A stretch of DNA of 64,000 nucleotides, from NCBI GenBank assembly GCA_021817845.1, contig JAKAFW010000003.1, forward strand, positions 54,586 to 118,585, read 5' to 3'. A program made the translations under genes and the position numbers. Below the pieces are notes generated by a model. It was not told the origin of the DNA. It saw only the letters and a program-made list of their open reading frames with translations, and searched no databases. Origin of the DNA: Bacteroidota bacterium (GTDB taxonomy: Bacteria > Bacteroidota > Ignavibacteria > Ignavibacteriales > Ignavibacteriaceae). Shown in pieces: positions 3,577 through 48,467 of the stretch; within the stretch, counting starts at the first letter, position 1, and each line of letters starts with the position of its first letter.

Positions 3577-3846
3577 AATATCTTCCTTTCTTATAATGGA
3601 AAGTTACATAAATTATTGAAAAGTTTCTATGAAGATTATTATTTCACTTCATCAGAACAAACTTCTTTACGATAGCTTTCCCTCAATGAAGAAATATAAA
3701 TCAAAACTAAATGATTAATTCACCTTACGCAAGTTAGCTTATGCTGTAACCTCAGCATTTAGAGGCTGTGTGAAAATTCAGAAGTGATGAATAAATATTT
3801 TAATTATGGATTTAAAATATGACTACATTAATATGTTTTTTTATTG

Positions 3847-3986
3847 CCCCGACATTTAGAGGCTGTGTGAAAATCAGTTCCAAAATTATAAATTTTCATT
3901 GTACTGAATATTAAAGCTTTTAAATGCAAATAATTAAATATTTATTCGCCGATTTTGAATTATCACACAGCCTCTTTATGTCGGGG
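3847..3986. repeat. Long inverted repeat (28-nt arms, ~84-nt AT-rich loop); third arm copy at 3756-3777
   Basis: CCCCGACATTTAGAGGCTGTGTGAAAAT (3847-3874) versus its near reverse complement at 3959-3986. CATTTAGAGGCTGTGTGAAAAT repeated directly at 3756-3777. Confidence 0.75.
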
Positions 3987-4132
3987 TGAAATGAACTCCA
4001 ATAAATACCGGGCTTCAGCCCCATTTGTGCTATTTATGTGGCTAAAGCCATAACTATCTTTTTTACAATAATCCCCGTCATAAACCTGCCTGACCGGTAG
4101 GCAGGTGGCGGGGCAATTAATGAATAAATTTT

Positions 4133-4447
4133 AAGTAATAAAAGCTAAAATGGCTTTTTCAATTTCATGAATTAGTACATTGGACCGGACACAAAAGCCG
4201 CTTAAACCGGCAGCTCACACACGATATAAAAGACGATGATTACAGCTTTGAAGAACTAATCGCAGAAATCGGAAGCTCATATTTATGCGGACTATGCGGA
4301 ATAGAAAACACACTAAACAACAGCGCAGCATATTTGAATGGATGGTCAAAGATAGGGAAGATGGATAAATCATTTATTCCCAAAGCAGCAATTCAGGCAC
4401 AAAAAGCAGTCAACTATTTAATCAACAAAACCGAAGAGGCCGCTTAA
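4133..4447 (+). pseudogene. ArdC-like (antirestriction / zincin metallopeptidase) C-terminal fragment
   Basis: Open frame without start codon: HELVHWTGHKSRLNRQL...FEELIAEIGSSYLCGLCGI...AAYLNGW...AAIQAQKAVNYL. HExxH plus the ArdC C-terminal pattern. The N-terminal DNA-binding domain is absent. Confidence 0.6.
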
Positions 4448-4829
4448 ATGCGGCTCTTCCCGGAGGGCAATAAAATGAACGACCTAAAAACCCTTTTTGA
4501 CGAGTGCGAGAAAAATAATTGGATCCCACAGCACGACTGTAAAAAGAACCTCAAAATAATCTCTCAAACCTGCCTGCCGGTCAGGCAGGCCCACTCAGTA
4601 AATTCAAGTCATAATATAGTTATTGCACAGACCAAACAATGCAAAATTTGCGGAAAGAAATTTGAAGAGACAGACCCAAACGGTATAAAGTAAAATCATC
4701 TCAAAAGGGAAGAGAATAAAATGAAAATCATTAGAATCTTAGATATCATCATAGGGATCAAAAACTCATCCGCCGCGAGTTGTCTCTTTGTTTTTCCCCC
4801 TTGTCACTAAAGTTTTAAGCATTTCCAAT

Positions 4830-5405
4830 TTATAGTGATATAGATATCCCTCCGTTAATTCCAAACCATGAAAATGTTTGGTTAGAGCCGGAATCATTAA
4901 GATTAGATTCTTTAGCGTTGATATCTATTGCAATTATTCCCGGAGGAAGATTATACCTAAATCCAACTATCGGTGAATAAATAAAGTTTGAACCGTAAGT
5001 AGCACCAGCTAAAGTAGAACTTGAAAATACAATACCTGCATCAATTCCGATATAAGGCTCTAAACCAAATCCGGGAATATTTAGAAAGAATTTAGGACCG
5101 AGAGTAACAGGTATTGAATACATATTAATTCCATTACCAAATTCGTGCAGCCCGCTATTGGAATAGCTGTATTGTGTTTTATATGCCCAATTATCATATC
5201 CTATCGATAGCGAAATCCCAACAGGAATTATAGGAATTGAATAATCAATAGACGCTGAGACTCCATAACCATTATTAACAAGATTACTAAAATTACCAAC
5301 CGGGATTTGTATCCCGCCGTTTAATGTAAAGCCAACTTGAGCGAAAGTTAAATTAAAGTTAAACAGAACTGCAGCAAGCAACATAACAGGGAATAATTTT
5401 TTCAT
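4830..5405 (-). CDS. Small outer-membrane beta-barrel protein
   Basis: 191 aa with a signal peptide (MKKLFPVMLLAAVLFNFNLTFAQ), alternating hydrophobic beta pattern and G/Y/S-rich composition. Confidence 0.65.
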   Translation of the reverse strand: MKKLFPVMLLAAVLFNFNLTFAQVGFTLNGGIQIPVGNFSNLVNNGYGVSASIDYSIPIIPVGISLSIGYDNWAYKTQYSYSNSGLHEFGNGINMYSIPVTLGPKFFLNIPGFGLEPYIGIDAGIVFSSSTLAGATYGSNFIYSPIVGFRYNLPPGIIAIDINAKESNLNDSGSNQTFSWFGINGGISISL

Positions 5406-5620
5406 AATGAATCTCCTTCAGATAAGTAATGTTAGTCCCACATAATTTTAGGACACTTCTAAAAACTAAGTAAAATAAAGAAAAAGTCAAAAAAATATTG
5501 TTATATTAATAAACCCAATAACAATAAATGGGCATACTTTAATAAATATAAAATCACCGGTTGAACATTCTTAATTCTTATTTATGAATAAAGATTAAAA
5601 TCTGTTGAAAGTGCATTACT

Positions 5621-8600: not shown

Positions 8601-8785
8601 AAAATTCCCTCAATTGCTGTTTCTACAAACTGGCGATACTTTTCCTCACTCTTGCGCAGTGTATCCTCTGACTTCTTTAAATCAGCAATATCTTTTTCAT
8701 AAGTTAACTTCAAATATTCATTTTCTTTTTTCAGTTCATTTAATTCGTATAAAAGTTCATATTCTGATTTTTCAATATTGTTCAT
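5621..8785 (-). CDS. Soluble multi-PAS sensor histidine kinase (6 PAS domains + HisKA + HATPase)
   Basis: 1054 aa. N-terminal coiled coil, 5 near-identical plus 1 divergent PAS units, H-box FSIIAHDLRSPF, N-box NLLSNAVKFT, G-boxes DTGIGI / GLGLLLCKEF. No TM segments and no receiver domain. Confidence 0.9.
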   Translation of the reverse strand: MNNIEKSEYELLYELNELKKENEYLKLTYEKDIADLKKSEDTLRKSEEKYRQFVETAIEGILSLDTDRRLTFVNRQMAAMLGYSAEEMLDKKYESFMPEDQLNEDKLQSQIRAKGKNAIYERCFLRKDGQRHWTLVSAKSITDSEGKFAGSFGIFTDINERKLAEEALQESEERYRRIVETANEGILQLDSDRRLTFVNQQLATMLGYTIEEMLGRKYESFLPEDQLTEDKSQSKIRAQGKNAVYERCFLRKDGQRYWMLVSAKSITDSGGKFAGSFGMFTDINARKQMEAALQESEERYRRIVETAIEGILSLDSERRLNFVNQQLATMLGYTIEEMLGKKYESFLPEDQLMEDKAQAKIRAQGKNAFYERCFLRKDGQRYWMLVSAKAITNSEGKIAGSFGMFTDINDRKKTEAALQESEERYRRIVETAIEGILQVDSDRCLIFVNQQLATMLGYTVEEMLGRKYESFLPEDQLTDDKVQSKIRAQGKNAVYERCFLRKDGQRHWMLVSAKAITDSDGKFAGSFGMFTDINKRKHMEAALQESEEKYRRIVETANEGILSFGSDTRINFINRQMATMLGYTVEEMLGQKIETFLAEDQLSEHYVQMKNRALGKDTVYERCFKRKDGQRYWMLVSAKTILDTAGNFAGSFAMFTDINERKRAEAALYESELQYRLLFETAREGIVVIQKSKLSYFNPMMLEITGYSYEELLNMNFFEFVYQKDRDLILANHNKTITGGNAEQRYQFRMLKKDNSLCWVEMGSVKFTWKGEAATLNFIIDITEQKLTEIELVKLNEELKLSKDVIEENLSQKNMLVEKLEKLNSEKDKFFSIIAHDLRSPFQGFIGLTEIMVEEINILSKTELTNISNDLNKSANSLYKLLQNLLEWSQMQKGTINFAPQEWQLSEIVGQSYENIAQRASQKGITLENNISDSIRVNADEKMLNTVVRNLLSNAVKFTTTDGKVTISAKEINDNMVEVSVTDTGIGISENDVNKLFKLDEKVRKPGTDGEPSTGLGLLLCKEFVENHGGKIWIKSQENIGSTFYFTVPSVEKN
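6785..8659 (-). repeat. Intragenic tandem repeat, 5 x 375 bp (125-aa PAS units)
   Basis: Protein residues 43-667 are five consecutive 125-aa units starting L(R/Q)(K/E)SEE(K/R)YR... The periodic antisense ORFs in the track mirror the repeat. Confidence 0.9.
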
Positions 8786-9166
8786 GGTTTATTCCAAAAA
8801 TATTTTTCACTGTATAATTGATCGAATTATAAAATAATTTTAAATTTTTAGATAGATTGATTTTTATTTGATTATTTTCAAGCATACTGAATATTATTAT
8901 CGGATATTTTCAAATTTATTTTAGATTAACCCAAGCGACCGGATATTTCAGCAAACTTTATTCTTATTCTTAACTTCTTTTATCAGCAGCTGATTGGGAA
9001 ATCTACAGTTTAAGAAAAAAGATGCACAGAATTTCTTTTGTAAGATTGCTAAAGTCATGCAATCTTAATTAAAATATTTTTCCAAGTGATGTCCAATTTC
9101 GAAATCTTACTTTGTTATAAATATGTAATTAAGAAATTTATTCATAATTAAAATTTGGAGTTTAAA

Positions 9167-9438
9167 ATGAACGATTACATGTTAATCTTCAGACACGAAG
9201 ACGGCAATAAAGTTGCTTCACCGGAACAAATCCAAATCAGGATGAAACAAACTATGGATTGGATCGGCGGCATTGTCGCACAAAATAAATTCGGCGGCGG
9301 TAACGGTTTACCTTTGGAGATGCCAAAGTTGTCCGGACTAAGAATTCAAAAAAAAATGTTACCGACGGACCGTTCGGCGATATAAAAGAAACTATCGGCG
9401 GATATATTATTATCCAAGCAGAATATCCCATTATTTGA
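9167..9438 (+). pseudogene. YCII/DGPF-family gene, frameshifted and 3'-truncated
   Basis: Frame 1 gives MNDYMLIFRHED...WIGGIVAQNKFGGGNGL. The family-typical continuation GDAKVVRTKNSKKNVTDGPFGDIKETIGGYIIIQAE lies in another frame (shift near 9305-9320) and stops early at 9436-9438. Confidence 0.6.
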
Positions 9439-9505
9439 AGTGATGCTCAAACTTGGTCATAGTCAATTAAAGACTACGCAATTATATTTACAAATGCTCA
9501 GCTGA
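9437..9505 (+). pseudogene. Tyrosine recombinase (integrase) C-terminal remnant
   Basis: Reads EVMLKLGHSQLKTTQLYLQMLS*. LGHSxxxTTxxY is the conserved C-terminal box holding the catalytic Tyr. Only ~22 codons remain, 80 nt from the tRNA-Asp 3' end. Confidence 0.4.
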
Positions 9506-9585: not shown

Positions 9586-9662
9586 TGGCGGGGCCGACGA
9601 GACTCGAACTCGCGACCTCCTGCGTGACAGGCAGGCGTTCTAACCAACTGAACTACGACCCC
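9586..9662 (-). tRNA. tRNA-Asp (anticodon GTC)
   Basis: Reverse complement folds as a cloverleaf: GGGGTCG acceptor, GTTC/GAAC D-stem, CCTGC-CTGTCAC-GCAGG anticodon arm, GCGAG-TTCGAGT-CTCGT T-arm, CGGCCCC-G-CCA. Confidence 0.93.
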
Positions 9663-19375: not shown

Positions 19376-22300
19376 TTATTTCGATTTCTTCCTACTTGTT
19401 TTATTAGACTTATTTGAAATTTTCTTAATATTCTTTCTCTTTACCGGCGCATTATCTTCAACCCCTTTTGTGGACAACAACTCCGTTAAAGTAATTAATC
19501 TATAACCTGATTCATCCGATTTTTCTTTTATTAGATTCAGTGTTTCTAGCTTTATTCCTAATTCACTTCTAAAAGCATTGTCATTACCTTTTTCCTTATT
19601 CCGTGATGACTTATGCTTTAATTTTGAATGTCCGGTAGCTTCTTTTTGTCCCATCAAATCTTTAGAAATAAAAGAAATAATGAAAATCCAGTTAACAATA
19701 TTCTCAAACCGCTCTTTATTAAAGTAAATAATTTTTTCAAATTCATTTAATAAAAGATAATCCAAAACTTCCCGGTTATTTATCAGCTCCGAAACGAAAA
19801 TATATTCTTTCCCCTTAACAAAAAGTTCTTTACTCTGAGTAAGATTATTTTTCGATAGCAATGCTTTTATTAATGAAGTTTCTTCAAACATATTTTCCAC
19901 ACTTCGTCCGGCATCTTTGAATATATCAATCAATGTTGTTTGCAGTAACAATTCTTCAAACAATATTTCAGGTCTGTTATTCATTTGGTAAAAGCTTAGA
20001 CTGTGTTTCAAAATTATATAAGTGAAAAGAATTTCCTTCTCATTTGGAATCTTTGGATCTTCAAGAATTAAGTTTGCAAAAGGTGACTCTAATTGTTTGT
20101 CTTGTTTCTCTAACTCGATCATATGCTTACATACGGATTTGATCCCCGTCAAATCCCTTTCAATCCCTCTTATTACTGCATCATTATCAATGCTAATGTT
20201 TTTCAGCATTTTAATTTCATTTAGTACTTTATAAATCTTTTCTCTTATAACCTTCGAAACCTTTGTCCCGGAATCATCGGCTTTAACATTCTCAAAACAA
20301 GCTTGGGTAAGATTATCGAATGTCTCTTTACAAAGCAGATAATTCAGAGAATCATGCAGGGGTGCAAGTTTCATTTCTTCTAACTTCTTTGAGACCGAAT
20401 AAACGCCCTCTCCTTTGATCATTTGAAATAGTTTCGCATAATCCCCGGTAGCATCGTATATCTCATTAAAATTAATAAGGACTCTGTATTCATAGCCCGA
20501 TAGCGAGAAGTAAATTCCGTGCTCATTAATTTCATAACCCGATAATAAATATTCCAATCCCGTTTTATGGTCTTTACATGAATAAAAAAATGAATGCCCC
20601 GTATTAAGTTGTAAAGCTTCGGAGAGCTTCACTATTCTCTTGTTATCCGTATGCGTATTATTGTTTTTAATTACAGAATGATTTATCGTGCCGCTGCATT
20701 GCGCATAAGCATTGTTATATACGACAAGTGCTCTTTCACTCCCATCGCGGTTTGTATATGCAAAAACATTTTCATTAATACCGCCGGTATCTACATTAAA
20801 ATCATAAAACTCAAAGTTAGCAACCTGACTGAATAACGATCTTCTTTTCATTAACGGAAATATCTCTGCTTCATGTCGTCTAATTAAATTCTCATCTGAA
20901 TACTCATCGTAATATGCACGCTTATATTCCATTCCGTATTTTTCTGAAAATCCTTCTATTTGGCCGTGCGCAAACATTGGAAGCCCGGGAAGGGTTATCA
21001 TTAATATTACAACGCCGAAATATTTATCTCCTTTTCCAAATTGATTAACTGCTGTTTCTTCATCAGGGTTGCTCATAAAGTTAACGTAACGTTTTAGAAT
21101 TTCAGGATTAAAATCTAAAGTGTTTTTTATCAGCTCACGGTATTTATTGTTTTCTTCCTTCATCAGCATGTGCATGAATGCGCTGTTATATACGCGGTGC
21201 ATTCCGAGTGTACGGACAAAATAACCTTCCATTAGCCAAAAAGCTTCCGCAAGCAACAGCGTGTTTGGCATCTCAGAATTGATACGGTCAACTACTTCAC
21301 GCCAGAATTCCTCCGGCATTGCTTCATCAAAAGCGTGCCGTGTCATTCCATAATCAGAACGCGACGGAATTGCACCGCCGGTTCCTGGCTCCGGAAACCA
21401 TAATCGTTGATAATGCTTTTTTGATAAAGTCATCGCTGCATCAAACCTTATGATCGGGAATTTCCTTGCAACATGAAGAATAGTTTGAATCAATGACTCT
21501 CTAACTTCAGGATTAAGCAGGTTAAGTTGTGCAGTATCGTTCCAGGGCATGTGTGTCCCGTCGTTACCGTGATAAATGTATCTTACGGATCCTGTCATTG
21601 TATCACGTCTTTGGAATACTACTGCGGCATCTTCTCGTGTATAATATCTGTCTTCAATTCTTATCTCAACTCGACTGTCATCTGAAAGATTGGGACTGTA
21701 AAAAGTATAATTGGGAAATGGCGGCATATCAGTTTGAATAAAATACCCGGGCTTCTCAATCACCCACTTTGAATAGGCGCCCGTATGGTTCGGTACCATG
21801 TCGCTGGCTAATCTAATTCCTCGTTGTCCGGCGCGATGTTTAAGATTTTCAAATGCTTCTTCTCCTCCAAGTTCGCTTGCAATTATATAATCAAATAATG
21901 AATATGCTGAGGGAGCAGCGTCTGGATTACCCGTTAGTTGTTTTATTTTGCGCGATGCGCTGCTGCGTTCCCAAATTCCTATTAACCAAAGTGCAGTAAA
22001 ATTCCAATTTGCTAATTTATCTAATTCTTCATCCGGTATTTGATCCAACCTGTTAATCAGACGTCTATATTTTTTAGAAAGTTGATCTAACCATACATAA
22101 CTGTTCTTGGCAATCATTACAACCTTCGGCATCCAATCAATGTCTTGAGTAAATTTTTCAATTTCCGAATTATAATATTGCCTTTCTATTTCTGATAAAG
22201 TTTCACCCGAAGCAAGTCTTGATTTAAGCTTATTAAAATAGTCACTATCATAGACAGGGACAGGAGGGGTCGGCTTATCGAATCCGCCGTGTTGTAGAAA

Positions 22301-28438: not shown

Positions 28439-28600
28439 GTTGCACAACTCCGAAATGTCATTTCGATCGGAGGGTCTACCCCGTTTGCGGGGAGAAATCC
28501 CATGTATAACTTAAGTATACAAGTTGAACGTGGGATATCTCAGTCGATTACCTGCCTGCCGGTAGACAAGCTCCTTCGCTATGAAATCTGGAAGTTCTGC
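28439..28600. repeat. Hairpin-repeat cluster, TGTCATTTCGA...GAGAAATCCC family (two inverted units)
   Basis: GTTGCACAACTCCGAAATGTCATTTCGA-[GC hairpin CCCCGTTTGCGGGG]-GAGAAATCCC, then the inverted unit GGGATATCTC...TTCGCTATGA. Homologous to 40352-40430 and 46129-46328. Confidence 0.7.
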
Positions 28601-31094: not shown

Positions 31095-31520
31095 ATCAAT
31101 GCCCCGGATGTTATATCAATACAAATAAAAATTCCCACAAATAATTTTCTAAGAGACTATTCCTTCGGAATCACTACCGGCATAATCACAATCCTCTTAT
31201 TCTTCCTTTTCATCAACTAACCATTTCACTTAAAATTGACATTTTCAAAGACACCATACTTAAGCATATGCAGTGAACTGCTATAATCCCATGCTTTAGC
31301 ATGAGGAAGAAACACCAACCAACCAAACCGGGCTTTAGCCCTGATTCTATTTTCCCAGACCTCCAGGTTTCAGCATAATGTCATAATTTATAAAAATGTT
31401 TTTTTAGAACTACCTACTTGAAAGAACAACTTGGTTTTAATAACCAATAGAATAATCAGAATATTCCGTAATGAATATCGAAGTCCGATTAGTTCGCTTT
31501 CGGTCAGTCGGCTCTCGTCT

Positions 31521-32267
31521 TCACTTCTCGAATACCATTCTCATTAGTCTTGTATCCGTCCTCAATGGCTCTTTTTTGAAATTGGAATAACCACCTATAA
31601 ATCTAAATCCAATGTCTTCTAATATATTTTTTATCTCGTGTGCGGAATACAATCTCCATGAACCGCTTTTGGTAACAACCCCATCTTTCTCGTATCTTTT
31701 AATAATAAAATTGTTCCTGCTGGTTAGATTATCAAAATCTCTTTTATCAACCACACGTATACAGTTAACCTCGGTATCTTGAATTTTTATATAGTTTTTC
31801 AAGATCCAATCCCTGTTTAATATTTCTATAAAAAATCTGCCTCTTGGTTTCAAGGCTTTAAAAGCTTTCCTTAAAATCAACTTATCCTCAATATCGCTAA
31901 AATAACCAAAGCTTTGAAACATAATAATAACCGCATCGTACCCTTTGCCATAATAAATTTTACGAACGTCACCTAGAATGAAATTCGGAGTATTAATTGT
32001 TTCTTTACATAATTGCTTTGCCAATTCTAAATAATTAACGTTCAAATCTATCCCGGTTGCTAAGTATCCTCTTCTTGCAAGTTCACGCGAATGTCTGCCG
32101 GCGCCACAGAATAGGTCAAGTACTTTATCTCCTTCATTTAATTCAAGAACATCGCAAATGAAATCGATATCTTTCCGTGTCTGCTTAGCAGGCACTCTAC
32201 CAAAGCCTGTCCTCATTCTAAATTCGTCATATAAATCCGAAAACCATTCCATATGTTTACACTCCAT
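31521..32267 (-). CDS. Class I SAM-dependent methyltransferase
   Basis: Motif I VLDLFCGAGRHSRELARRG. 248 aa. Confidence 0.8.
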   Translation of the reverse strand: MECKHMEWFSDLYDEFRMRTGFGRVPAKQTRKDIDFICDVLELNEGDKVLDLFCGAGRHSRELARRGYLATGIDLNVNYLELAKQLCKETINTPNFILGDVRKIYYGKGYDAVIIMFQSFGYFSDIEDKLILRKAFKALKPRGRFFIEILNRDWILKNYIKIQDTEVNCIRVVDKRDFDNLTSRNNFIIKRYEKDGVVTKSGSWRLYSAHEIKNILEDIGFRFIGGYSNFKKEPLRTDTRLMRMVFEK

Positions 32268-32357
32268 ATATAATGATCGTTAATAGCTAAAAATAAAGAA
32301 TCATCAAACGGTTTTATCCCAAGCCGAAAAGGGAAAATATGCTTTTATATTAAACAC

Positions 32358-32413
32358 ATGCCAAATGCGAAATGGCTTTCGTGTTGAGCTGCAGGTCAGC
32401 TCACATTATTATT
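32358..32413 (-). repeat. Partial (5'-half) copy of the attC-like element family
   Basis: Minus strand AATAATAATGT...CATTTCGCATTTGGCAT shares the leader and the TTTCGCATTYGGCAT core with E1 and E2. The 3' half is not recognisable. Confidence 0.45.
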
Positions 32414-32434
32414 TCAAACTTTCCTTAAATATTC

Positions 32435-33178
32435 TTACTTATTTTTCTCAATAAATAGCTCTCCCTTTCCATATTCTCCCGTTTCTTTTGAATGAAGAAT
32501 TATAGTAATCTTATCATATTTATCGGTAACTTTTTTTTCTTTTGGTTTCAATATTTGAACAAGATACCCATAAAGATAAGAACCACGGGCATATTCTACT
32601 ACTTTCTGAACAGATAGTATTTTAACTTTTATTTCATTTATTTTTATAAGCAATTCATTAGTAGAAATACTTTTAGGAGCGATATTTATTGTGTCATGAA
32701 GTTCGACCGCTTTTTTTTCAAACTCTTTTTTATTTCTATTATTTGTTAACATTAAGAATTTTGTTAAACTCATAGGTCTGAAGAAAACAAAATAAGTATT
32801 AAATGGAGACACTCGAGGTTCAAAAGCATTAATTCCATAAATTTCCATTTTATCATATTGCGGGTTTATCTTAAGGTCTTTATAAACAGGAATATTCCAA
32901 GCCCAATATTCAAGTTTTGTCTTTCCATATTCATTAGGTCTTATAGCATAAAGACAATAATATGTACCCTCCGCAACTTGCATTGAATAATTTCCATCTT
33001 TATCAGTAATTGTTTTATAAATGTCTTTAAAATCTCTGTCTTTTAATATTACTTTAGCGCTATCAATAGGATTTGAATTAAAATCAGTGACTTTGCCATA
33101 TAATTTAAAAGTCTCTTGTGCAAATAAGAAGTTACTGATATTTATAATTATTAATAATAGTATTAATGTTTTATTCAT
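32435..33178 (-). CDS. Secreted protein with N-terminal carboxypeptidase-regulatory-like domain
   Basis: Signal peptide, then YGKVTDFNSNPIDSAKVILKD...TDKDGNYSMQVAEGTY (CarboxypepD_reg-like beta-sandwich pattern). Confidence 0.55.
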   Translation of the reverse strand: MNKTLILLLIIINISNFLFAQETFKLYGKVTDFNSNPIDSAKVILKDRDFKDIYKTITDKDGNYSMQVAEGTYYCLYAIRPNEYGKTKLEYWAWNIPVYKDLKINPQYDKMEIYGINAFEPRVSPFNTYFVFFRPMSLTKFLMLTNNRNKKEFEKKAVELHDTINIAPKSISTNELLIKINEIKVKILSVQKVVEYARGSYLYGYLVQILKPKEKKVTDKYDKITIILHSKETGEYGKGELFIEKNK

Positions 33179-33233
33179 TCCTGATTACACTTTTGTGTTA
33201 TAAAGGTTTAGTTTATAATGTATTATACCAATG

Positions 33234-35858
33234 CTAAAAATTAAATTGAATCAACCATCTAAAATCAAATTTTTTACCGTTATTAACCGGTTGATTTATG
33301 TATAAAGGGAAATCAATTTTTATATATCCTAAAAGATTAAATCCGATTCCTAAATCATATTTGAGAGAACCAAAAGATTTATCCCAAACATTACCTACAT
33401 CGCAAAACATATTTACGAATGTTAAATTTGGAATTGAAACTTCCAGGTTAGCTCCCAATCCGTTTGAACCTCTTAAATGCTGCCCGATATAACCTCTCAA
33501 GTTAGCATCACCTTGTACATGTAAATTTCTTTGAGTAGAAATAGAATTACCTGGGTCAACAAACCAATATGCAAAGCTTGAAGGATATACGCTGCCCGAT
33601 AAAAATACAGATTCCTGGGTTGGGTAATTACCTCTTACAATTCCCCCGAATAATCTGTAATTAAGCCAATCGATAGAAGCAGGAAGAAAGTTCTCAAGCT
33701 CCATAGAAATTCTTGAATAAGAAAAATCGCCCCCCATCATCTTACTGCCAAACTTAGCTGTTATATTTTCCTTTTCACTCTGTAGTTTCTTATCCCAATT
33801 TAATGATAATGTATTGTTTGTTCCATGCTGAAAATCTTCATTATCATAATAAGCTATATCATAAATCAAGTTTCTGTTAATTGTTAAAGTCAGGATGTTA
33901 TGTTTACCATATCTTCCGTCTTTTTGAAAAATATAATTTAGATTTAATCCGTAATTCTCGGTGCCGCGGTAATTACTTAAATTCATTCCCCAATTCCATC
34001 TGTAAGAAGGCATACCAAGTATTGTTTTAAAATCAAGAGAGTATCCTGCTCTTTTAGTACCGAAACCATAAAATAAACCTGTTCTCCATTTTATGAGCTC
34101 CAGGTTTCTTGAAACAGATTCCTGCTTTACGGGATATATATTTGAAAGCCATAGCCCTAAACGTAAATGATCTCTTTCACCATAGGTAAATGAAGGATAG
34201 TAAAAATATTGTTCCTCGGACAAATTTAAATCCGAAATCAAAAAAGAAAATCTCTTTTGGCGGGGATAGTAATTATTTATCCGGTTAGCGTCTAATAAAT
34301 ACCAATTAGGGTCTATTTCCGTTTTAACAACTTTTTCATCTGAAAGAAATTCAACATTAGCAATGCCGTTTTGCAAGTTACCGACTTTTTCAATTAGTTT
34401 TTTATTATTGCTTGTTACAGCCATAACCTGGAACGGAACAAACATATCACCGTTATTTTTTATTTGAACTGTGGTTTTATAATTTCCGGCTGCGGTTTTC
34501 TCACTCTCAACATCACAAATATCATAATCTATAATTTTGTTGGTGTTAACCCAATCATTAACCTGTTTGCTTATATCTTTACCGCTTACATCTTCAAGAT
34601 ATTTTGTAAAATCATTTTGTGAAATACTATCTTTTTTGTCATTTTCAATTAAGTTTTTTATTGCATTGTCAAAAGTATTGATGCCCATAGTAAATGCAAG
34701 ACTGCTTAAAAAATAGTAACCTTTATCATAAGCTGCCCATGCATAGAGACTGCCATCCCCTAATGTGATTTTTGAAATTGGTTTTTCTTCGTAAACACTA
34801 CCGAATACTAATCTAAGTAGATCACCAAAATTACCTTCAATACCTAAAGATATGAATAAAAACTTTTTACTAAGATTAATGTCTTTGTCATACATTTTTA
34901 AAATTGTTCTGCAATATGAACTCGCGGTATATTGGGCAAACGACTCATTCAGATACCAATCGTGATAATTAAACATTATTTTGTGCGGAAACCATTGATG
35001 TGCAGCCTCATGAGCAATTATAAAACGGGTTAAATCATCGTTTTCATTTATTATGCTTGAGCTTAAAAGCATCAGTCCTTTTGGTGAATATCCACTAAAC
35101 TGATTAGAAGGAACTGCAACTTCCACAATTTTAAAATCCGGCAAAGGAAATTTTCCAAATCGTTCTTGATAATAAGATAATATTTCGCCAACGTAATTAA
35201 TAAGAGTATCACTTTTTTCTTTATGTTCCGGGAAAAGAAAAGTTTCAATATTTATATTGTCTCTGGTTTGTTCATGAACGGAATAGACTGCTGCACATAC
35301 GCTAAAAAGGATTATTGCTTCGGGCGTTTTGTAATGATAAGTCAATTTGTCTTTTAGTGTATCAACTGCTATTAAATTTCCGGAACTGATAACCGTCAAA
35401 CTATCCGGTACGGTAACTTTAGTGTTAAAAGTAGCTTTATTACTAAAATTTTGGCTTTCCAATTGGGGGTAAAATTCTGATTCAGATAAAAGCATTATTC
35501 TGCTTGATGCCCAGTCAGAGTATTTTGCTTGATAGTTAATCCTCAAGGATACAATATCATTTGGTTTAATTGGTTTGTTTAGATCTATAATTAATTTTCC
35601 ATCAACATCTATAAAATCATATCTATTCCCATGTAAATCGGAAACCAAATCAATTTTATCGTAATCGAGATTAAAGGTTAACGTATTAACAGAACTAGAA
35701 TCAAGCGATTTTATTGTAACTATAGATTCCGCATTCAGTTTTTCTTGTTTTGGGAATAATTCAAGATTTAAATCATAATGAGTTATTTTTAGATTTTGTG
35801 ATAATGACGTGGAGGTAATAAATATTAGAAAAATAAAGAATTGTAGAAGTGATTTCAT
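33234..35858 (-). CDS. M1-family zinc metallopeptidase fused to a C-terminal Omp85-type beta-barrel
   Basis: 874 aa. Signal peptide; HEAAHQWF...YLNESFA (HExxH + downstream E, M1 pattern). C-terminal FCDVGNVWDKS...YDLGIGFNLLGYIKIDFPLYIN...FDFRWLIQFNF matches the Omp85/BamA-family terminal strands. Confidence 0.65.
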   Translation of the reverse strand: MKSLLQFFIFLIFITSTSLSQNLKITHYDLNLELFPKQEKLNAESIVTIKSLDSSSVNTLTFNLDYDKIDLVSDLHGNRYDFIDVDGKLIIDLNKPIKPNDIVSLRINYQAKYSDWASSRIMLLSESEFYPQLESQNFSNKATFNTKVTVPDSLTVISSGNLIAVDTLKDKLTYHYKTPEAIILFSVCAAVYSVHEQTRDNINIETFLFPEHKEKSDTLINYVGEILSYYQERFGKFPLPDFKIVEVAVPSNQFSGYSPKGLMLLSSSIINENDDLTRFIIAHEAAHQWFPHKIMFNYHDWYLNESFAQYTASSYCRTILKMYDKDINLSKKFLFISLGIEGNFGDLLRLVFGSVYEEKPISKITLGDGSLYAWAAYDKGYYFLSSLAFTMGINTFDNAIKNLIENDKKDSISQNDFTKYLEDVSGKDISKQVNDWVNTNKIIDYDICDVESEKTAAGNYKTTVQIKNNGDMFVPFQVMAVTSNNKKLIEKVGNLQNGIANVEFLSDEKVVKTEIDPNWYLLDANRINNYYPRQKRFSFLISDLNLSEEQYFYYPSFTYGERDHLRLGLWLSNIYPVKQESVSRNLELIKWRTGLFYGFGTKRAGYSLDFKTILGMPSYRWNWGMNLSNYRGTENYGLNLNYIFQKDGRYGKHNILTLTINRNLIYDIAYYDNEDFQHGTNNTLSLNWDKKLQSEKENITAKFGSKMMGGDFSYSRISMELENFLPASIDWLNYRLFGGIVRGNYPTQESVFLSGSVYPSSFAYWFVDPGNSISTQRNLHVQGDANLRGYIGQHLRGSNGLGANLEVSIPNLTFVNMFCDVGNVWDKSFGSLKYDLGIGFNLLGYIKIDFPLYINQPVNNGKKFDFRWLIQFNF

Positions 35859-35885
35859 AAATACTCCAACTTATTAATTTTAACT

Positions 35886-36040
35886 TTATAACAGTGATGG
35901 ACTTTGAAAGCAAATGCCAATGTTTTATAAAAAACTTTGTTACCTAATTTATTTCAAGAGCATCAAACATTGACAACACAACTTTTATTATCACTAATGC
36001 AAAACAGTTTAAAGTTGTAGCCTTGGCAGCCACTTTATGC
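35886..36040 (-). repeat. Degenerate attC-like element E0
   Basis: Minus strand GCATAAAGTGGCTGCCAAGGC...AAACTGTTTTGCATTAGTG...TTGGCATTTGC...GTTATAA is collinear with E1 and E2, but the arm pairing is decayed. Confidence 0.4.
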
Positions 36041-36043
36041 TAT

Positions 36044-36871
36044 TTATTTTTTAGCAATACATTTTTTAATAAAATTTGACAGTTTATTTATATATTCCTC
36101 TGGCTCTACCTTGTAAGTATCGCAATGAGTTCCTTTTTCTACCAGCCAATATTGTTTATTATTATGACTTATCGAATTATAAAGCTTCAATGACATTGAC
36201 TCAGGTAAATTGTCATGTTTACCGTGTATTATAAGTATTGGACATTTTACTTTTTGAATTTCTAAAGAGTTATCGAATTCTAAATCTTTATCATATTTTA
36301 TTTTAATAAAATAAAGAAACCAAAAATGGGACTTCGTCGCAGCAACAAAATCCTTAGTTGAACTTATTAATCCTTCCAATATAAGACCCGATACACCTTT
36401 TCTTGTCGCAACCTTAACCGCAGGTATACTCCCCATTGATAACCCGTATATTATTATCGGCTTATTCTCAGGATTATGTTTCTCCAAATAATCCAATGCT
36501 CCTTCGGCATCTTGGTATATTCCTTTGAACGATGGTTCCCCGGTACTTCTCCCGTATCCTCTATAATCAATTGCAAACACATCTGCATTCAGCTTAGATA
36601 ACGAATTGATTATATTTGTCCAGGGATAGCTGTATAGATTTCTAGTATTTCCATGTAATAATAATATTATCGCATCGGAGTTTTCTTTTGTTAAATACCA
36701 TCCGTTAAGTGAAATGCTATCTTCAACAGAGAAATAAACATCATTGAATTTATAATCGCTGGAAAGCCTTTCTAATTTTACAGGCTGGAAAAACATACTT
36801 TCTTCAATTGTATAACAACCTTGGGAAAGAAGCGAAAGGGAAAATATTAATATTAATATTTTGTTTTTCAT
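36044..36871 (-). CDS. Alpha/beta hydrolase (lipoprotein-like signal)
   Basis: 275 aa. LLLHGN oxyanion region, GLSMGS nucleophile elbow, C-terminal GTHCD. Confidence 0.8.
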   Translation of the reverse strand: MKNKILILIFSLSLLSQGCYTIEESMFFQPVKLERLSSDYKFNDVYFSVEDSISLNGWYLTKENSDAIILLLHGNTRNLYSYPWTNIINSLSKLNADVFAIDYRGYGRSTGEPSFKGIYQDAEGALDYLEKHNPENKPIIIYGLSMGSIPAVKVATRKGVSGLILEGLISSTKDFVAATKSHFWFLYFIKIKYDKDLEFDNSLEIQKVKCPILIIHGKHDNLPESMSLKLYNSISHNNKQYWLVEKGTHCDTYKVEPEEYINKLSNFIKKCIAKK

Positions 36872-36884
36872 TTTACTCTCAACA

Positions 36885-37074
36885 GGCTAACGGGGTTGCC
36901 AATAAGCGGCGCCCCAACACTACAATGCCGAACTTGTTAAATAATTTTATAATTATAAAAATCTTTCATAGCCCAACTACCTTGAACAAGAAACCTGAAA
37001 CGGAATAACTAACCCGAGAATTATGAAAATGCCAAATGCGAAAACGGCGTCCGCCTTGATTGGCTTGGTTATGT
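36885..37074 (-). repeat. attC-like structured element E1
   Basis: Minus strand ACATAAC-CAA-GCCAAT[C]AAG[G]CGG[A]CGCC ... GGCGCCGCTTATTGGC-AACCCC-GTTAGCC. TAAC/GTTA pairing, internal loop, 16-bp stem with 3 bulges all on the ORF-proximal arm. Central ~130 nt is ~80% identical to E2. Confidence 0.6.
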
Positions 37075-37083
37075 ACGTTATTA

Positions 37084-37821
37084 TTATAAAAGCATCGGTA
37101 TTAAAACCATTATTACATTTGATATGTTATGAATTATTATTGGAAATACTATACTTTTGCTTTTTACAAATACCCAGCCCATAACGAAGCCCATACTGAA
37201 CATCTGCAGGAACATTATTAAATCGAAACTTATATTAAAATTCTTATTCAAATTTAATGCGTGTAATAAACCGAAAAGTATTGAAGTTATTAAAACACTT
37301 GGATTAATGAATTTCAAATTTTTTATTTTGATGTTATCAACCAGTATCTGACTTAATAATCCAATCATTATTCCCCTAAAAGCTAATTCTTCATCTATGC
37401 CTGGGATTGTAAGCTGGAACATCAAAGTCTCTAAGTTAAAGTTAGCTTTATTAGATGCAAAGAAGCCAATTGAAATTGTAGCGAAGGCAAACACAGATAA
37501 AACAATAAGAGAAAATCGAATCGAATTAGGTTTTTGATGAAGTGTTATACCATATTCACTAATGGGATATTTCTTATAAAAAATTAGAAATATAATAGAC
37601 CCTAAAATAGCTAAGAATTTACCAGACCAATTCCAATTTTGCTTAAAGAAATGGAATACATCCAACGAATAAGAAAATAACAATATATGATGAATAATTA
37701 CAAAGAGAGTAAAAGCAATTATAGTATAATATGTATCACGATTTTTATTTTTAATAGTAAAAAAAACAACAGGGCTTATAATAAGCAATTGCAGCAAAAC
37801 AAGAATTATTTGTCGGTACAA
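37084..37821 (-). CDS. CPBP family intramembrane glutamic endopeptidase (CAAX protease-like)
   Basis: 245 aa, multi-TM. EELAFRG, FGLLH and HNISN motifs. TTG start. Confidence 0.8.
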   Translation of the reverse strand: MYRQIILVLLQLLIISPVVFFTIKNKNRDTYYTIIAFTLFVIIHHILLFSYSLDVFHFFKQNWNWSGKFLAILGSIIFLIFYKKYPISEYGITLHQKPNSIRFSLIVLSVFAFATISIGFFASNKANFNLETLMFQLTIPGIDEELAFRGIMIGLLSQILVDNIKIKNLKFINPSVLITSILFGLLHALNLNKNFNISFDLIMFLQMFSMGFVMGWVFVKSKSIVFPIIIHNISNVIMVLIPMLL

Positions 37822-37861
37822 AATCTCACCTTATTTTATTAATAAATGTTCAAATTGTTTA

Positions 37862-38074
37862 GCACATAACGTCGTTGTGGCTAAGGCGCAGCCCAAAACT
37901 ACAATGCCGAACTTGTTAATAGTTTTTATAATTAAAAAATATTTCATAGCAAAACTACCTTGAATAAGAAACTTGAAATGGAATGACCAACACTATAATT
38001 TGTAAAATGCCGAATGCGAAAACAGTTTACCACGATTTAATCGGGGCTGTCGCCTTGAGCTACTTGTTATATGC
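37862..38074 (-). repeat. attC-like structured element E2
   Basis: Minus strand GCATATAAC-AAGTA-GCT[C]AAGGCG[A]CAGCCC ... GGGCTGCGCCTTAGC-CACAACGAC-GTTATGTGC. 9-bp terminal pairing, 5x9 internal loop, 15-bp stem with 2 bulges on the ORF-proximal arm. Confidence 0.6.
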
Positions 38075-38099
38075 GATTTTACTTTTATGATATTATTTT

Positions 38100-39227
38100 C
38101 TATGCAATAATAGCGATGCATTTTATTTCATCCCAAATTGGCTCTTTGAAATATTTTGGGAACCATAATTCGTCAGGATAAGAGTCCATTGAATGCAAAA
38201 AAAATGGAATATTATTTTCGCTATTTAATAATACAATCCCCAGCAATAATTTTCTTAGTGGTGGACATTGTATTAATAAAGTTGTGAGTAATTGGTGTGA
38301 AATAGTTTTATCAACAGCAATCCTATTATAAAAAGCAAATACACCATTACCATTGTTGAATTTATCATAATTTTTCTTGCAAGTAAGTTTTTGGATTATG
38401 TTTCCGATAGATGCAATCCTTTTTGCTTGAGGCATTTCTATTTTGATTGGGAAATCATTTTCTTCGATTTTACCAATAGATATTATTTCTATATCAGAAG
38501 AAAGTTTTGCAGTTTGAAAATTATGCTTGTATTTTTGTTCATAAATGATTTGGCTAGCTTGGTTCACTAAAGACATAATAGAGCTATGCAAAGCCCACGA
38601 AACATTTTCTATTTTAGGATTTATCGAGCACGCAGAAGCAATACCACCAACCCAAGACTCGCCAAAACGAATAATTCGTTTAATTCCGTCGTTTGGTAAC
38701 ATCTTTTCTATACTGCCACGGATCCAACCATCAAACTTATCCAAACCAATTTCAAAATCAGTTTCTGAACTACCTTTAACTTCGACATAAAAAGAATGAT
38801 TTCCGGTCACTATCTCATAATCTGGTTGTTTAATATCTTTTTCAAGAATTAGGTTAACATTATTTGTGGCAGTTCTTATTCTAGAACCAACATATATTTC
38901 TGCTAATGCTCCATTAAAGCCAAATGGATTTTTCAAATCTTTTAACACTTTTTCATAATTCGTAATATTCTTAACAATAGATATTTCGAGACATATTTTA
39001 AACAAAGTATGCAATGATTTTCCGGAAGTATCTATCAACATCCATACAATGGGATGAATATTTTGAGGATTTGCAAATTCTTCATCTTCTGGCATTTCAA
39101 CTTCTTCAAAGGTTTCTTCTAATACTTTAAATAGGAAATCAGCTTTATTAGAAGTCAAACCAGATTTAATTAATTTTGATGATTCTAATACAACGTCACG
39201 AGTAAGTATATTTTTTTTCTTGGACAT
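38100..39227 (-). CDS. Hypothetical protein with a possible PD-(D/E)xK nuclease motif
   Basis: 375 aa with no recognisable family. KQPDYEIVTGNHSFYVEVKG fits PD-x(n)-ExK spacing. Motif-level evidence only. Confidence 0.35.
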   Translation of the reverse strand: MSKKKNILTRDVVLESSKLIKSGLTSNKADFLFKVLEETFEEVEMPEDEEFANPQNIHPIVWMLIDTSGKSLHTLFKICLEISIVKNITNYEKVLKDLKNPFGFNGALAEIYVGSRIRTATNNVNLILEKDIKQPDYEIVTGNHSFYVEVKGSSETDFEIGLDKFDGWIRGSIEKMLPNDGIKRIIRFGESWVGGIASACSINPKIENVSWALHSSIMSLVNQASQIIYEQKYKHNFQTAKLSSDIEIISIGKIEENDFPIKIEMPQAKRIASIGNIIQKLTCKKNYDKFNNGNGVFAFYNRIAVDKTISHQLLTTLLIQCPPLRKLLLGIVLLNSENNIPFFLHSMDSYPDELWFPKYFKEPIWDEIKCIAIIA

Positions 39228-39461
39228 AAGATTTAATTCAGACTTTTAAACTTTCTTAAGCATATACTATTAATTGAGAAAATTAATCCTTACCTCAATT
39301 GTCGTATTAGCAAGATTTATTTCCCTGCTAACTCTCCTATTAAATATTAGCCCAATCTCCATAACTCGTTTATTCTATATATTGATAACATTTCATTTTA
39401 ATTGCTTCAATTTATTAAACGGAATAATTCTTCCGCCTAATAAATATCACACTTTCTCAGT

Positions 39462-39728
39462 CTAATGGGCTATATTTACACCGGCTCCTAAATTTGCTAC
39501 ATAAGTATTCGCCCAGTGAGATAAAATTCCTTTATCATATCTCTGTAAAACATGTACAGAATATCTCACGGGGGAAATCATCATAGTCTTTACCGAACCA
39601 TGTTCTAATAATTCTTGTATTGGTTTATTTTCTTGAAATGTCTTCGCAATCCCTTCTCCCGGAATAACAATCTGAATGTTCTGTGAGGTAGTATTTATAT
39701 TTGTTTGCAACCCTGCATCTCCCCACAC
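39462..39728 (-). CDS. Hypothetical ORF, possibly a gene fragment
   Basis: 88 codons with a GTG start and no recognisable motif. Lies in a decayed region between the cassette-like array and mutS. Confidence 0.25.
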   Translation of the reverse strand: MWGDAGLQTNINTTSQNIQIVIPGEGIAKTFQENKPIQELLEHGSVKTMMISPVRYSVHVLQRYDKGILSHWANTYVANLGAGVNIAH

Positions 39729-40351
39729 AAATCAATTTGAAATTTATTTCTAGTATCCATCTTTAAGTTAAATACCTTATCCCAATAAATTTATAAATGA
39801 ATCTAAATATTTTATTCCCAAATTACAAGAAAATTATTGTAACGTTTTGTCCACACATTGGATCAAATATAAGATAACCGAAGCAGGCTTGTAAAAATGT
39901 CGTTAGGTCATAATAAAGGTAACCCCGAATTATGAATTCAATTTTTTCCCCTTTTGTTAATGGGGAGGACAAAGGAGGGGGTCGAAATAATAACATGACT
40001 AAAATCTTTGTCTACTAGACAGGTATGTCTGCCTGCTGAGGCTAAGTCGAAGGCAGAATGTTTTTCCTGACTTTTATCTTTTTTCCCCCTTGCGGCTAGT
40101 CGCCCCAGGACATTTCTATTTCTTTCTTGATTCACATATTGCAATTCAATATGTTTGATATAGTCAAATATTAGTCCTTTTTCCCTGCATCTTATAACTT
40201 TATAGCTGTTACCTTTTAATTCTTCCAATTCCATTCAAAAAAGGAAAAGCAAATCAAAACTAACCCACAAAACATTATGAATGCACTGTGAATACACTCT
40301 GAATGCCTTCTAATAGCCTTATCTTGTTCAGAAATCACACTTGCCGATGCT

Positions 40352-40430
40352 GTTGCATAACTCCAAAATGTAATTTCAACCCTGCCGTAAGGCAGGTGGA
40401 GGGCCTGCCCCGTTTGCGGGGAGAAATCTC
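40352..40430 (+). repeat. Hairpin repeat, TGTCATTTCGA...GAGAAATCCC family
   Basis: GTTGCATAACTCCAAAATGTAATTTCAA-[CCTGCCGTAAGGCAGG]-GGAGGGCCTGCCCCGTTTGCGGGGAGAAATCTC. Matches 28439-28503 apart from an inserted palindrome. Confidence 0.7.
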
Positions 40431-46128: not shown

Positions 46129-46328
46129 CTGTCATTTCGAATCCGGCTTTAGCCGGTGAGAAATCCCAAGAGTAGCTTAGATACACGAGTAGATCATGGG
46201 ATATCTCAGTCGCAAAGCTCCTTCGATATGACATACAAATAGTTGTCATTAGTACCGGAGGGTCTACCTCAACGACCCTGCCGGCAAGGTTTAGCCGGAG
46301 CTTGTCCCGTATGCGGGAAGAAATCCCT
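46129..46328. repeat. Hairpin-repeat cluster, three units of the TGTCATTTCGA...GAGAAATCCC family
   Basis: Unit 1 is CTGTCATTTCGAA-[TCCGGCTTTAGCCGG]-TGAGAAATCCC. Unit 2 is inverted: GGGATATCTC...TTCGATATGACA. Unit 3 is TTGTCATT...GGAGGGTCTACC...CCCGTATGCGGGAAGAAATCCC. Confidence 0.7.
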
Positions 46329-47477: not shown

Positions 47478-48467
47478 ATGCAAAACTTTCCACTGCCGAG
47501 AATTGATTCGGATGAAGATTTACAAAAGCTTTTACTCCCTTATTGCAGATTAAAAAAGGGTGACCTTTGGATTGACCCAACTGGCAAACATAAAATCGGC
47601 TGCCTTGACGCCGGAAATGCTTCTGAAATAAACCAACTCATGAATGGGGGATCTGCCTCGCTTGCTGTGCAAGATCCTCCCTATAATTTTGTCGCTTTTG
47701 AAGAAATGGAAGAGAAGAGATTTGTCGACTGGTGCGTGAATTGGATTAAAAATTCCTTTAATTCATTAAGCGAAAATTCCTCCTTGTACGTTTGGCTTGG
47801 CGCTGATCAGAAAAATCATCTTCAACCGCTTCCCGATTTTCTTCTAATGATGCAAAATAGCGGATTTCATTCCCGTAGCTTTATCACCATGCGAAACCAG
47901 CGAGGTTACGGCACGCAAAAAAATTGGATGTCTGTTAGACAGGAACTTTTATACTATACAAAGGGCGACCCTGTTTTTAATGTTAATGCGGAATACACTG
48001 ATATTCCTAAAATATTAAAAGGATACTATAAGTTAGTTGCTGGAGAAGTAAAGGAGAATTCCGAAAGAAGTAAATCTGAATTTATTCGTGCTGGAAATGT
48101 CTGGGTTGATATTCAACAAGTGTTTTATAGGATGGAAGAAAATGTTAACGGGTGTTATGCTCAAAAACCTCTCAAAGCTATCGAAAGAATAATAAATGCG
48201 AGTAGTGATCAGAATGATATAGTCCTGGATTTGTTTTCGCATTCTGGCACTACATTATTAGCGGCTGAAATAAATAATAGAAGATGCTTTACCTCTGATT
48301 TAAACCCTGTATTCTGTGAAATTACTCTGCGTCGCCTGGAAAATTATAGGAGCAATCGTAAGACCGGTTGGCAGAATTCTAATCCCTTTGCCGAAGAAAT
48401 ATTAGGAGATAAAAAGTTAAAAGAATATTTGGATAGTTGTTTAGATTTGAATTCAAATAATCATTAA
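47478..48467 (+). CDS. DNA methyltransferase, N6-adenine/N4-cytosine, beta-class motif order
   Basis: Catalytic DPPY (LAVQDPPYNF) precedes the SAM motif VLDLFSHSGTTLLAA. 329 aa. 5-nt gap after ymdB. Confidence 0.75.
   Translation: MQNFPLPRIDSDEDLQKLLLPYCRLKKGDLWIDPTGKHKIGCLDAGNASEINQLMNGGSASLAVQDPPYNFVAFEEMEEKRFVDWCVNWIKNSFNSLSENSSLYVWLGADQKNHLQPLPDFLLMMQNSGFHSRSFITMRNQRGYGTQKNWMSVRQELLYYTKGDPVFNVNAEYTDIPKILKGYYKLVAGEVKENSERSKSEFIRAGNVWVDIQQVFYRMEENVNGCYAQKPLKAIERIINASSDQNDIVLDLFSHSGTTLLAAEINNRRCFTSDLNPVFCEITLRRLENYRSNRKTGWQNSNPFAEEILGDKKLKEYLDSCLDLNSNNH

Follow-up and report, generated by a model that had tools for sequence, protein, structure and literature searches.

In sedentary chromosomal integrons, of which the Vibrio cholerae repeats are an example, and in clusters of attC sites lacking integron integrases (CALIN elements), co-oriented and promoterless-looking open reading frames (ORFs) are each followed by an attC recombination site. 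The attC sites of sedentary chromosomal integrons form lineage-specific families with high similarity between copies, have R'' and R' boxes, an unpaired spacer and extrahelical bases on one arm, and recombine at a G|TT crossover; toxin-antitoxin genes are found among the cassettes. Integrons have already been reported in Chlorobi and Ignavibacteriae, and CALIN elements have been defined (PMC4889954, PMC9024848). Here, we have analysed a 64-kb window (64,000 nt, the whole stretch of DNA under study, whose positions are used throughout) on a contig of an Ignavibacteriaceae bacterium, and show that its minus strand carries three head-to-tail ORFs together with two elements, E1 and E2. These are true attC sites and belong to a family of long sites that typifies Ignavibacteriales-type integrons. 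The region is very probably what is left of a sedentary chromosomal integron after the loss of its integrase, namely its cassette array. Integrons in Ignavibacteriae being already known, the one noteworthy feature is the attC type, which is unusually long and partly conserved.

The locus and its relatives share all of the features above, toxin-antitoxin cassettes being represented by a nucleotidyltransferase/HEPN-like pair in locus L004 and by a PIN protein in L030/L031 (L numbers designate the loci collected from other genomes and metagenomes). The attC cluster without an integrase is also as in the CALIN elements of IntegronFinder. Classical attC sites are roughly 57-141 nt long, with a variable terminal structure of about 3-100 nt, and the default upper limit of IntegronFinder on attC size is 200 nt; in contrast, sites of the present family measure 170-291 nt, with a median loop of 132 nt. 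Unlike V. cholerae-type repeats, the family is not confined to one genus and spans several families and orders of the Fibrobacteres-Chlorobi-Bacteroidetes (FCB) group. Its arms are diverse, and conservation can be higher in the loop than in the arms, which sets it apart from classical attC families, and the array in the window has only two or three cassettes, unlike typical chromosomal arrays. Neither this attC family nor integrons in Melioribacter were described in any paper that a literature search turned up.

Another related group, the 'inverted integrase' integrons of the Treponema denticola type, was reportedly described by Boucher et al. in 2007. Such integrons are discussed in PMC4889954. 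As in this group, intI shares the strand of attI and the cassettes and points at them in L004, L009, L014, L030, L033 and L077, and the putative intI remnant of the window has the same orientation. Unlike the T. denticola type, the present integrons belong to another host clade, and Melioribacter also has attC-like sites upstream of intI.

The attC sites E1 and E2 and their family

The three ORFs of the array encode a 375-aa protein, for which Pfam and PADLOC searches returned no family match, a CPBP protease and an alpha/beta hydrolase (Table 1). These identities, proposed in an earlier note on this DNA, were confirmed by the family searches. The 375-aa ORF stops 27 nt before E2, which is followed after 42 nt by the CPBP ORF, while the CPBP ORF stops 9 nt before E1, the R' box of which lies 13 nt ahead of the hydrolase ORF; gaps of about 14-40 nt between an element and the next ORF had been claimed. 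The CPBP cassette extends over 979 bp (36891-37869). Counted from G to G, the GTTA boxes of E2 and E1 are 979 nt apart, and that of E1 is 999 nt from a putative box in E0, a possible third element, which agrees well with the cassette-sized spacings of about 980 and 995 bp given before. A homologue of the 375-aa protein (54% identical) is likewise a cassette, with an attC site on each side, in the array of L039. When the cassettes of the window were searched for in the arrays of the other loci, none was present, and CPBP homologues at ~70% identity had no detectable attC adjoining them. A scan of 35800-39500 for sigma-70 promoters and terminators gave a count not above that of shuffled sequences, with none conserved in the attC family, and no Bacteroidetes-type TAnnTTTG motif was seen by eye in the same interval.

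E1 and E2 align from end to end, with 79% identity over the central 106 nt without gaps (~80% over ~130 nt had been claimed), and their termini differ in sequence yet remain complementary. In E2, the R'' box ATATAAC (38072-38066) and the R' box G|TTATGT (37870-37864) enclose a 16-position stem in which GT(A)GCT[C]AAGGCG[A]CAGCCC pairs with GGGCTGCGCCTTAGCCAC, with one A.C mismatch, bulged C and A, and a loop of 153 nt. In E1, the boxes are ACATAAC (37074-37068) and G|TTAGCC (36891-36885), and GCCAAT[C]AAG[G]CGG[A]CGCC pairs with GGCGCCGCTTATTGGC, with bulged C, G and A and a loop of 132 nt. The stem of E1 is of a different sequence type and fully compensated, being 16/16 paired though only 50% identical to the consensus arms. 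The stem and bulge layout drawn in the earlier note is borne out both by reading the sequence and by folding: when the centre was swapped for a GAAA loop, the same stems formed on either strand, at -18 kcal/mol (z -5.2) for E2 and -15 kcal/mol (z -3.7) for E1. The minimum-energy fold of full-length E2 also has the long-range stem (z -1.9).

It had further been proposed that each of the three ORFs is followed by an element of this kind, E0 being a decayed one. This is borne out for E2 and E1, but is not supported for E0. A search of the 64 kb with R1, a covariance model trained on 16 family elements, found nothing beyond E1 and E2 at E<0.1, and E0 is not supported as a family member by its R1 score, only about 4 bits with filters off, or by shuffle controls: its Smith-Waterman score against E2 (28; shuffles 20.2 +/- 3.1) was reached by 14/500 shuffles and equalled by control windows. 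By eye, GCATAAAGTGGCTGCCAAGGCTACAAC in E0 is similar to the 5' arm of the family, and GTTATAA to an R' box.

Table 1. Features of the array region, in positions of the window
Feature	Position	Strand	Remark
Weak match to an integron-integrase C-terminus (box II), putative remnant QENKPIQELLEHGSVKTMMI	39576..39635	-	inside 88-aa ORF 39462-39728
attI-like core CAATTAATAG|T, proximal array boundary	39266..39276	-	resembles core TAAnTAATAGTTA behind intact intI
Cassette 1 gene, 375-aa protein	38100..39227	-	no Pfam or PADLOC family
attC site E2, 209 nt	37864..38072	-	R1 213.6 bits
Cassette 2 gene, Rce1-like/CPBP intramembrane protease	37084..37821	-	PF02517, 61.5 bits
attC site E1, 190 nt	36885..37074	-	R1 192.9 bits
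Cassette 3 gene, alpha/beta hydrolase, lipoprotein-like signal peptide	36044..36871	-	PF12146 + PF00561
E0, possible eroded terminal attC	35886..36040	-	lacks statistical support

That E1 and E2 belong to a large family came from the observation that a 20-mer common to both, AACAAGTTCGGCATTGTAGT, is present in 20 species-representative genomes and 49 metagenome contigs, the hosts of which include Rosettibacter, Melioribacter, metagenome-assembled genomes (MAGs) of Ignavibacteriaceae/Ignavibacteriales, 'Bacteroidetes' MAGs, a Chlorobiaceae MAG and an Ohtaekwangia MAG. R1 yields 46 copies in the window and the genome loci (alignment A4, which includes E1 and E2) and 84 in the metagenome loci (alignment A7, the 55 complete copies of which are used for the anatomy counts). 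The copies were expected to lie at ORF 3' ends with terminal pairing, and were so found, in same-strand arrays. In loci with several copies, all share a strand, with a typical distance of 0.7-1.6 kb from one copy to the next, as in the arrays of six copies in L013 and seven in L015; the median gap between elements is 817 nt, and 28 of 35 such gaps have their longest ORF on the strand of the attC sites.

The ends of the elements are sharp, with ..TAAC on one side and GTTA.. on the other. In 46 + 55 copies, the consensus is R-Y-(A/C)-TAAC for R'' (TAAC in ~90%) and GTTA-(T/G)-(A/G)-Y for R', each of which departs at one position from the textbook consensus (RYYYAAC and GTTRRRY, respectively). 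In A4, 44/46 copies have the C bulge and 43/46 the A bulge, while the counts for A7 are 53/55 and 54/55, respectively; in all copies the two are six pairs apart and both on the ORF-proximal arm. In all folds the spacer is unpaired and asymmetric: its 5' side consists of two nucleotides, C/A and A, and its 3' side of an AACGCC-like stretch of 6 nt. The 55 copies have 30 distinct 5'-arm sequences, and yet Watson-Crick pairing holds in 89% of the cells of the 16 arm pairs. The compensatory changes that had been seen between E1 and E2 now rest on ~130 further copies: double changes occur at 14/16 arm pairs in A4 and 12/16 in A7, and 91-92% of arm cells are paired, pairing statistics in which structure is somewhat favoured since both alignments were fitted to the model. 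The observed pairing scores were reached by 0/500 shuffles, and slid controls (whole structure) pair at 29-48%. The outer three R-box pairs are formed in only about half of the copies, as is expected if the distal TTRRRY derives from the neighbouring cassette.

Elements of 170-290 nt with inverted-repeat termini, intergenic and in several copies per genome, could also be non-autonomous repeats, either miniature inverted-repeat transposable elements or repetitive extragenic palindromes, that landed between genes by chance; that assemblies often break within the elements would fit such repeats as well. However, recent transposition would not give copies of 30 arm types that carry compensatory changes and are still complementary. 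The elements of a locus have one orientation and cassette-sized spacing, there is no target-site duplication besides the shared GTTA crossover, and no transposase is associated with them, the associated enzyme being an integron integrase (see below). We find an origin as mobile repeats scarcely credible. Concerning the assemblies, short-read contigs (L025-L029 and many of L046-L094) often start or stop inside an attC site; as attC repeats break assemblies, arrays are probably under-represented in MAGs.

The attC identity of the family was supported by comparison with class 1 integrons. A second model, R2, was limited to the R boxes and arms of the family, leaving out the centre, and was used to search class 1 integron regions (R100, pSE08-00436-1; 19 kb). 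The only match was the 60-nt attC site of aadA1, in register, with a score of 36 bits (E about 1e-8); the attC site of dfrA1 was not detected by R2 in the regions searched. The aadA1 site (class 1 In2, plasmid R100) reads TCTAAC-AATTC-GTT[C]AAGCCG[A]CGCCGC...GCGGCGCGGCTTAAC-TCAAGC-GTTAGA, and its counterpart in the family ATAAC-CA-GTGGCT[C]AAGGCG[A]CAGC...GCTGCGCCTTAGCCAC-AACGCC-GTTAT. Both have C and A bulges six pairs apart and a 3' spacer of 6 nt. Unlike the family, the aadA1 site has a loop of only 4 nt. Ahead of the C bulge, its stem has 3 bp, against 6 bp in the family, and as a result the 5' unpaired spacer of the family is shorter.

The loop of the family sites measures 106-227 nt in A4 and 77-227 nt in A7. 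Its centre, which carries TTCGGCATT repeated twice, is 85-93% identical across genera in many copies, being shared at this level by Ignavibacteriaceae, Melioribacteraceae, 'Bacteroidetes' MAGs, a Chlorobiaceae MAG and Ohtaekwangia. In other copies with perfect arms the identity of the centre is down to 17-50%; the copy L009:4981, for example, has 16/16 arm pairs but a centre identity of only 37%. That the centre decays while the arms stay perfect shows that it is not needed for family membership. Arm type and loop identity are also decoupled across copies. In one attC site (L004 5620-5814), a 5' arm of E1 type (GCCAATCAAGCGGACGC) is combined with a 3' arm of another type (GCTGCGGCTTAGTTGC), and the two are unmatched (10/16 Watson-Crick, two more G.T); this hybrid suggests an exchange between attC sites via the conserved centre. 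The centre yielded neither a promoter nor a conserved ORF, and no internal helix with strong support. Nor does either strand of the loop hold a conserved small ORF, since indels of 1-2 nt between copies shift the frame.

The elements might instead be structured RNA genes or leaders, that is, small RNAs or cis-regulatory 5' untranslated regions of the downstream ORF, with the stem as an RNA helix. Sharp boundaries and a covarying closing stem would suit an RNA, as would hairpins of variable length inserted at fixed points (E2, L005, L015; L002, L008); an ORF with a ribosome-binding site usually begins 5-45 nt downstream of the element, and some of the predicted internal helices rely on G.T pairs that are possible on the sense strand only. 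However, the downstream genes are mutually unrelated, and neither E1 nor E2 has an Rfam match at E<=10, a tRNA being the only feature of the window that reaches the gathering score. An RNA would also leave unaccounted for the arrays beside integron integrases, the cassette insertion with a GTTA crossover (see below), the decay of the centre in many copies with perfect arms such as L009:4981, and the detection of a class 1 attC site by R2, the model of the arms. It is, in our judgement, very unlikely that the elements are RNAs in place of attC sites, while an RNA role of the centre in addition to its attC role is possible. A bolder version, which we think rather unlikely, is that the ~130-nt centre is a second functional module inside the recombination site and not inherited filler. 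It could then act as a sense-strand RNA element on cassette transcripts, or as a platform to which a host or integrase accessory factor binds and so assists the folding of such long sites. If this were true, attC sites of the FCB group would be two-part elements, which could account for the reassortment of arms and centres.

Integrases and cassette gain in related genomes

Integrases were searched by tblastn with an IntI1 query that was validated by its matches, the first match being then reused as the query. The intI gene was found in L004, L009 (fragmented), L014 and L077, with attC arrays of the family just downstream on the same strand. The IntI protein of L004 scores 412.9 bits on TIGR02249, the 'integron integrase' model of NCBIfam (cut-off 265 bits), and aligns over its full length to V. 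cholerae IntIA (VchIntIA, PDB 2a3v). Its segment LPYALAKKYVNADKDFGWQYVFP corresponds to the integron-specific insertion in the 2a3v alignment, so that the kind of integrase whose search the earlier note had recommended does occur beside arrays of the family. L004 IntI has thousands of relatives; many of these come from Ignavibacteriales, Melioribacter roseus and Stygiobacter electus under the name 'integron integrase', which is also the NCBI annotation for integrases of this clade. An intact intI gene beside attI and cassettes, which makes an integron complete, is found in L004, L030-L033 and L077. Behind intact intI genes, in L004, L009, L014, L030, L032 and L033, there is a core TAAnTAATAGTTA, which starts 96-161 nt past the intI stop in intact relatives.

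Recombination at this core can be read from two Melioribacter loci, L030 and L031, which encode identical IntI proteins. L030 has one extra cassette of 1015 bp, located right after the intI-proximal core, with a cytochrome-b-like ORF and a family element (107 bits). The empty site reads ..AATAATAGTTA|TACCGC.. and the filled site ..AATAATAGTTA|GGCAAAT....CAACGTTA|TACCGC.., which places the crossover inside GTTA. The cassette runs from TTAGGC to the G that opens its own R' box, and GTTA is found at both junctions. These junctions are the signature of attI x attC integration, and they provide the presence or absence of a single cassette with GTTA junctions that had been proposed as a check. L031 (Melioribacter roseus P3M-2, CP003557) also has, at 3377-8845, four attC-like sites upstream of intI on the same strand, which separate small ORFs, among them one for a PIN-domain protein; cassettes thus flank the integrase on both sides in L031.

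The attC interpretation of E1 and E2, first made from their geometry, is therefore supported by the anatomy of the family, by arrays beside intI, by a cassette with GTTA junctions and by the recognition of the aadA1 attC site. R boxes, a covarying stem, bulges on one arm, the spacer, arrays in which an ORF precedes each site, and cassette gain and loss at G|TT are all found. As had been remarked for E1 and E2, the sites are longer than most attC sites over the whole range of the family, and in size they depart from known attC sites; size is a habit of the known sites and not a mechanistic requirement.

By the established mechanism of integrons, the bottom strand of these attC sites would fold so that R'' pairs with R' and L'' with L', and the strand to be recombined would be marked by its extrahelical G and T, read as C and A in the coding strand. 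IntI would then cut between G and TT of R' and exchange whole cassettes with attI or with other attC sites. E1 and E2 themselves are presumably still recombination-competent.

Putative traces of intI and attI, and strain differences at the locus

To look for remains of an integrase, we searched all six frames of the window with an IntI profile made of 80 Ignavibacteriales IntI. The best fragment of the 64 kb was QENKPIQELLEHGSVKTMMI (10.9 bits, E 0.024). By tblastn, 11/20 of its residues are identical to the intact IntI of L004, with an E of 0.33 over all collected loci and of 0.001 within a 1.36-kb region. This match is suggestive of an eroded intI remnant, though it does not prove one. On the cassette strand, the putative remnant lies ~195 nt upstream of the attI-like core. 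Another stretch, AATAGGAGAGTTAGCAGG at about 39330, had been our first candidate for attI and was rejected, because a profile of six attI regions had no match there and homology between strains continues through to 39266. The minus strand would then read, in order, an eroded intI remnant, an attI-like core, the 375-aa gene with E2, the CPBP gene with E1, and the hydrolase gene with at best an eroded E0. The statement in the earlier note that there is no intI in the window is right for an intact gene, and has to be qualified by the weak C-terminal match. In the same way, its label of CALIN-like suits a window that holds two attC sites 979 nt apart on one strand and no complete integron, but the traces of intI and attI fit a decayed integron better. 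In L035, a second copy (19470-20077, 94% identical) of the sequence matching window 39621-40228, the ORF98/ORF88 region with the putative intI remnant, adjoins a GerE-family gene ~10 kb from the first copy, while the window is without a second copy.

Comparison of strains shows four array states, the MutS proteins of L035, L041 and L042 being 99% identical to that of the window. The window has the order 375-CPBP-ABH (ABH, alpha/beta hydrolase). In L035, L036 and L037 the order is 375-ABH and the CPBP cassette is absent. L041 has the same platform from mutS to attI, followed by two unrelated cassettes with family attC sites of their own (147 and 84 bits). In L042 there is no array, and window 31127-39633 is replaced by another gene. 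The homology between the window and L041 (84-97%) runs up to position 39266 and no further, which is precisely where the attI-like core CAATTAATAG|T has its G|T. Cassette polymorphism across relatives, which had been suggested as a comparison, thus exists at this very locus between strains of the same species. The 375-aa gene carries E2 in the window and a different attC site, 'X', in L035, with arms of E1 type and a centre only roughly 70% like that of E1. A single integrase event, either on the bottom strand (G|TT) or on the top strand (AA|C), was considered for the difference between the window and L035 and rejected, as neither predicts attC 'X'. Distal to the array, window 33234-35858 and L035 12373-14997 encode an M1-peptidase-like protein that is 88% identical between the two, against 99% for MutS and 99% for the hydrolase; this region may have been exchanged between strains as well.

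Since the decayed intI remnant is common to strains with different arrays, namely the window, L035 and L041, turnover of the array would have needed an integrase acting in trans or homologous exchange, and recent turnover here, if any, would have gone by one of these routes. It could be argued that the attC sites are real but that the array in the window is a dead fossil, the strains differing by homologous recombination or transformation across conserved flanks and attC centres. The shared decay of intI is in line with this argument. So are the breakpoints between the window and L035, the loss from L042 of 8.5 kb that included attI, and the single gene order in all ten contigs with proteins identical to those of the window; the hybrid attC site of L004 (10/16 pairs), together with the decoupled identities of arms and centres, points to exchange through the centre. 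On the other hand, the window and L041 break exactly at the attI-like G|T, as integrase-mediated insertion predicts, and both E1 and E2 have intact arms, bulges and R boxes. We would give a dead fossil slightly less than an even chance.

Several observations weigh against the more general reading of the region as the array of a sedentary chromosomal integron with a lost integrase. No intact intI was found in the 64 kb by tblastn or with the IntI profile, and the remnant is a stretch of ~20-30 aa with E of 0.024-0.33. A profile of the full attI region of ~78 nt fails to detect the attI core of the window, which means that only the core is conserved. The proposed check by folding held for both stems with a GAAA loop, but at full length for E2 only, the minimum-energy fold of E1 being without the long-range stem (z -0.3). 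The order of the genes is fixed in all ten contigs with window-identical proteins, and the difference in the CPBP cassette between the window and L035 has no canonical G|TT breakpoints, which lie after R'' and inside the loop/3' arm. Finally, the long loop is unusual, measuring 20-100 nt in attC sites according to Cury et al. (PMC4889954) and 77-227 nt here, and so is its partly conserved centre. Classical attC sites have no such conservation in the loop. With these points taken into account, we still hold a decayed sedentary chromosomal integron to be very probable.

Other features of the window and significance of the array

Apart from the array, a minus-strand ORF of 1054 aa (5621-8785) contains, at 6770-8650, five tandem repeats of 375 nt that are 70-75% identical to the first, and its product looks like a repetitive domain protein. 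A G+C-rich hairpin repeat, GGAGGGyCTrCCCCGTTTGCGGGGAGAAATC, occurs between genes of this AT-rich genome at 28469-28546, 40398-40428, 46154-46212, 46295-46325 and 47646-47676. Some copies share a longer tail, one copy lies between mutS and the integron remnant, and the repeat has no Rfam match. On the plus strand at 9386-9502 there is a weak tyrosine-recombinase box-II-like fragment, VMLKLGHSQLKTTQLYLQML (E 0.79 on the IntI profile), which adjoins the only tRNA of the window (9589-9662, minus strand) and could be a relic of an integrated element.

The locus is an integron array outside the proteobacteria that can be recognised from sequence alone, in a phylum whose integrons are known only from automated surveys. 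If the attC size limit of IntegronFinder is indeed 200 nt, arrays with sites as long as these may be undercounted in genomes of Ignavibacteriota and the FCB group, and would then be missed when cassette diversity is surveyed in sediments and bioreactors. While our understanding of integrons is unchanged by it, the locus is a natural test case for the fate of a cassette array after its integrase has decayed.

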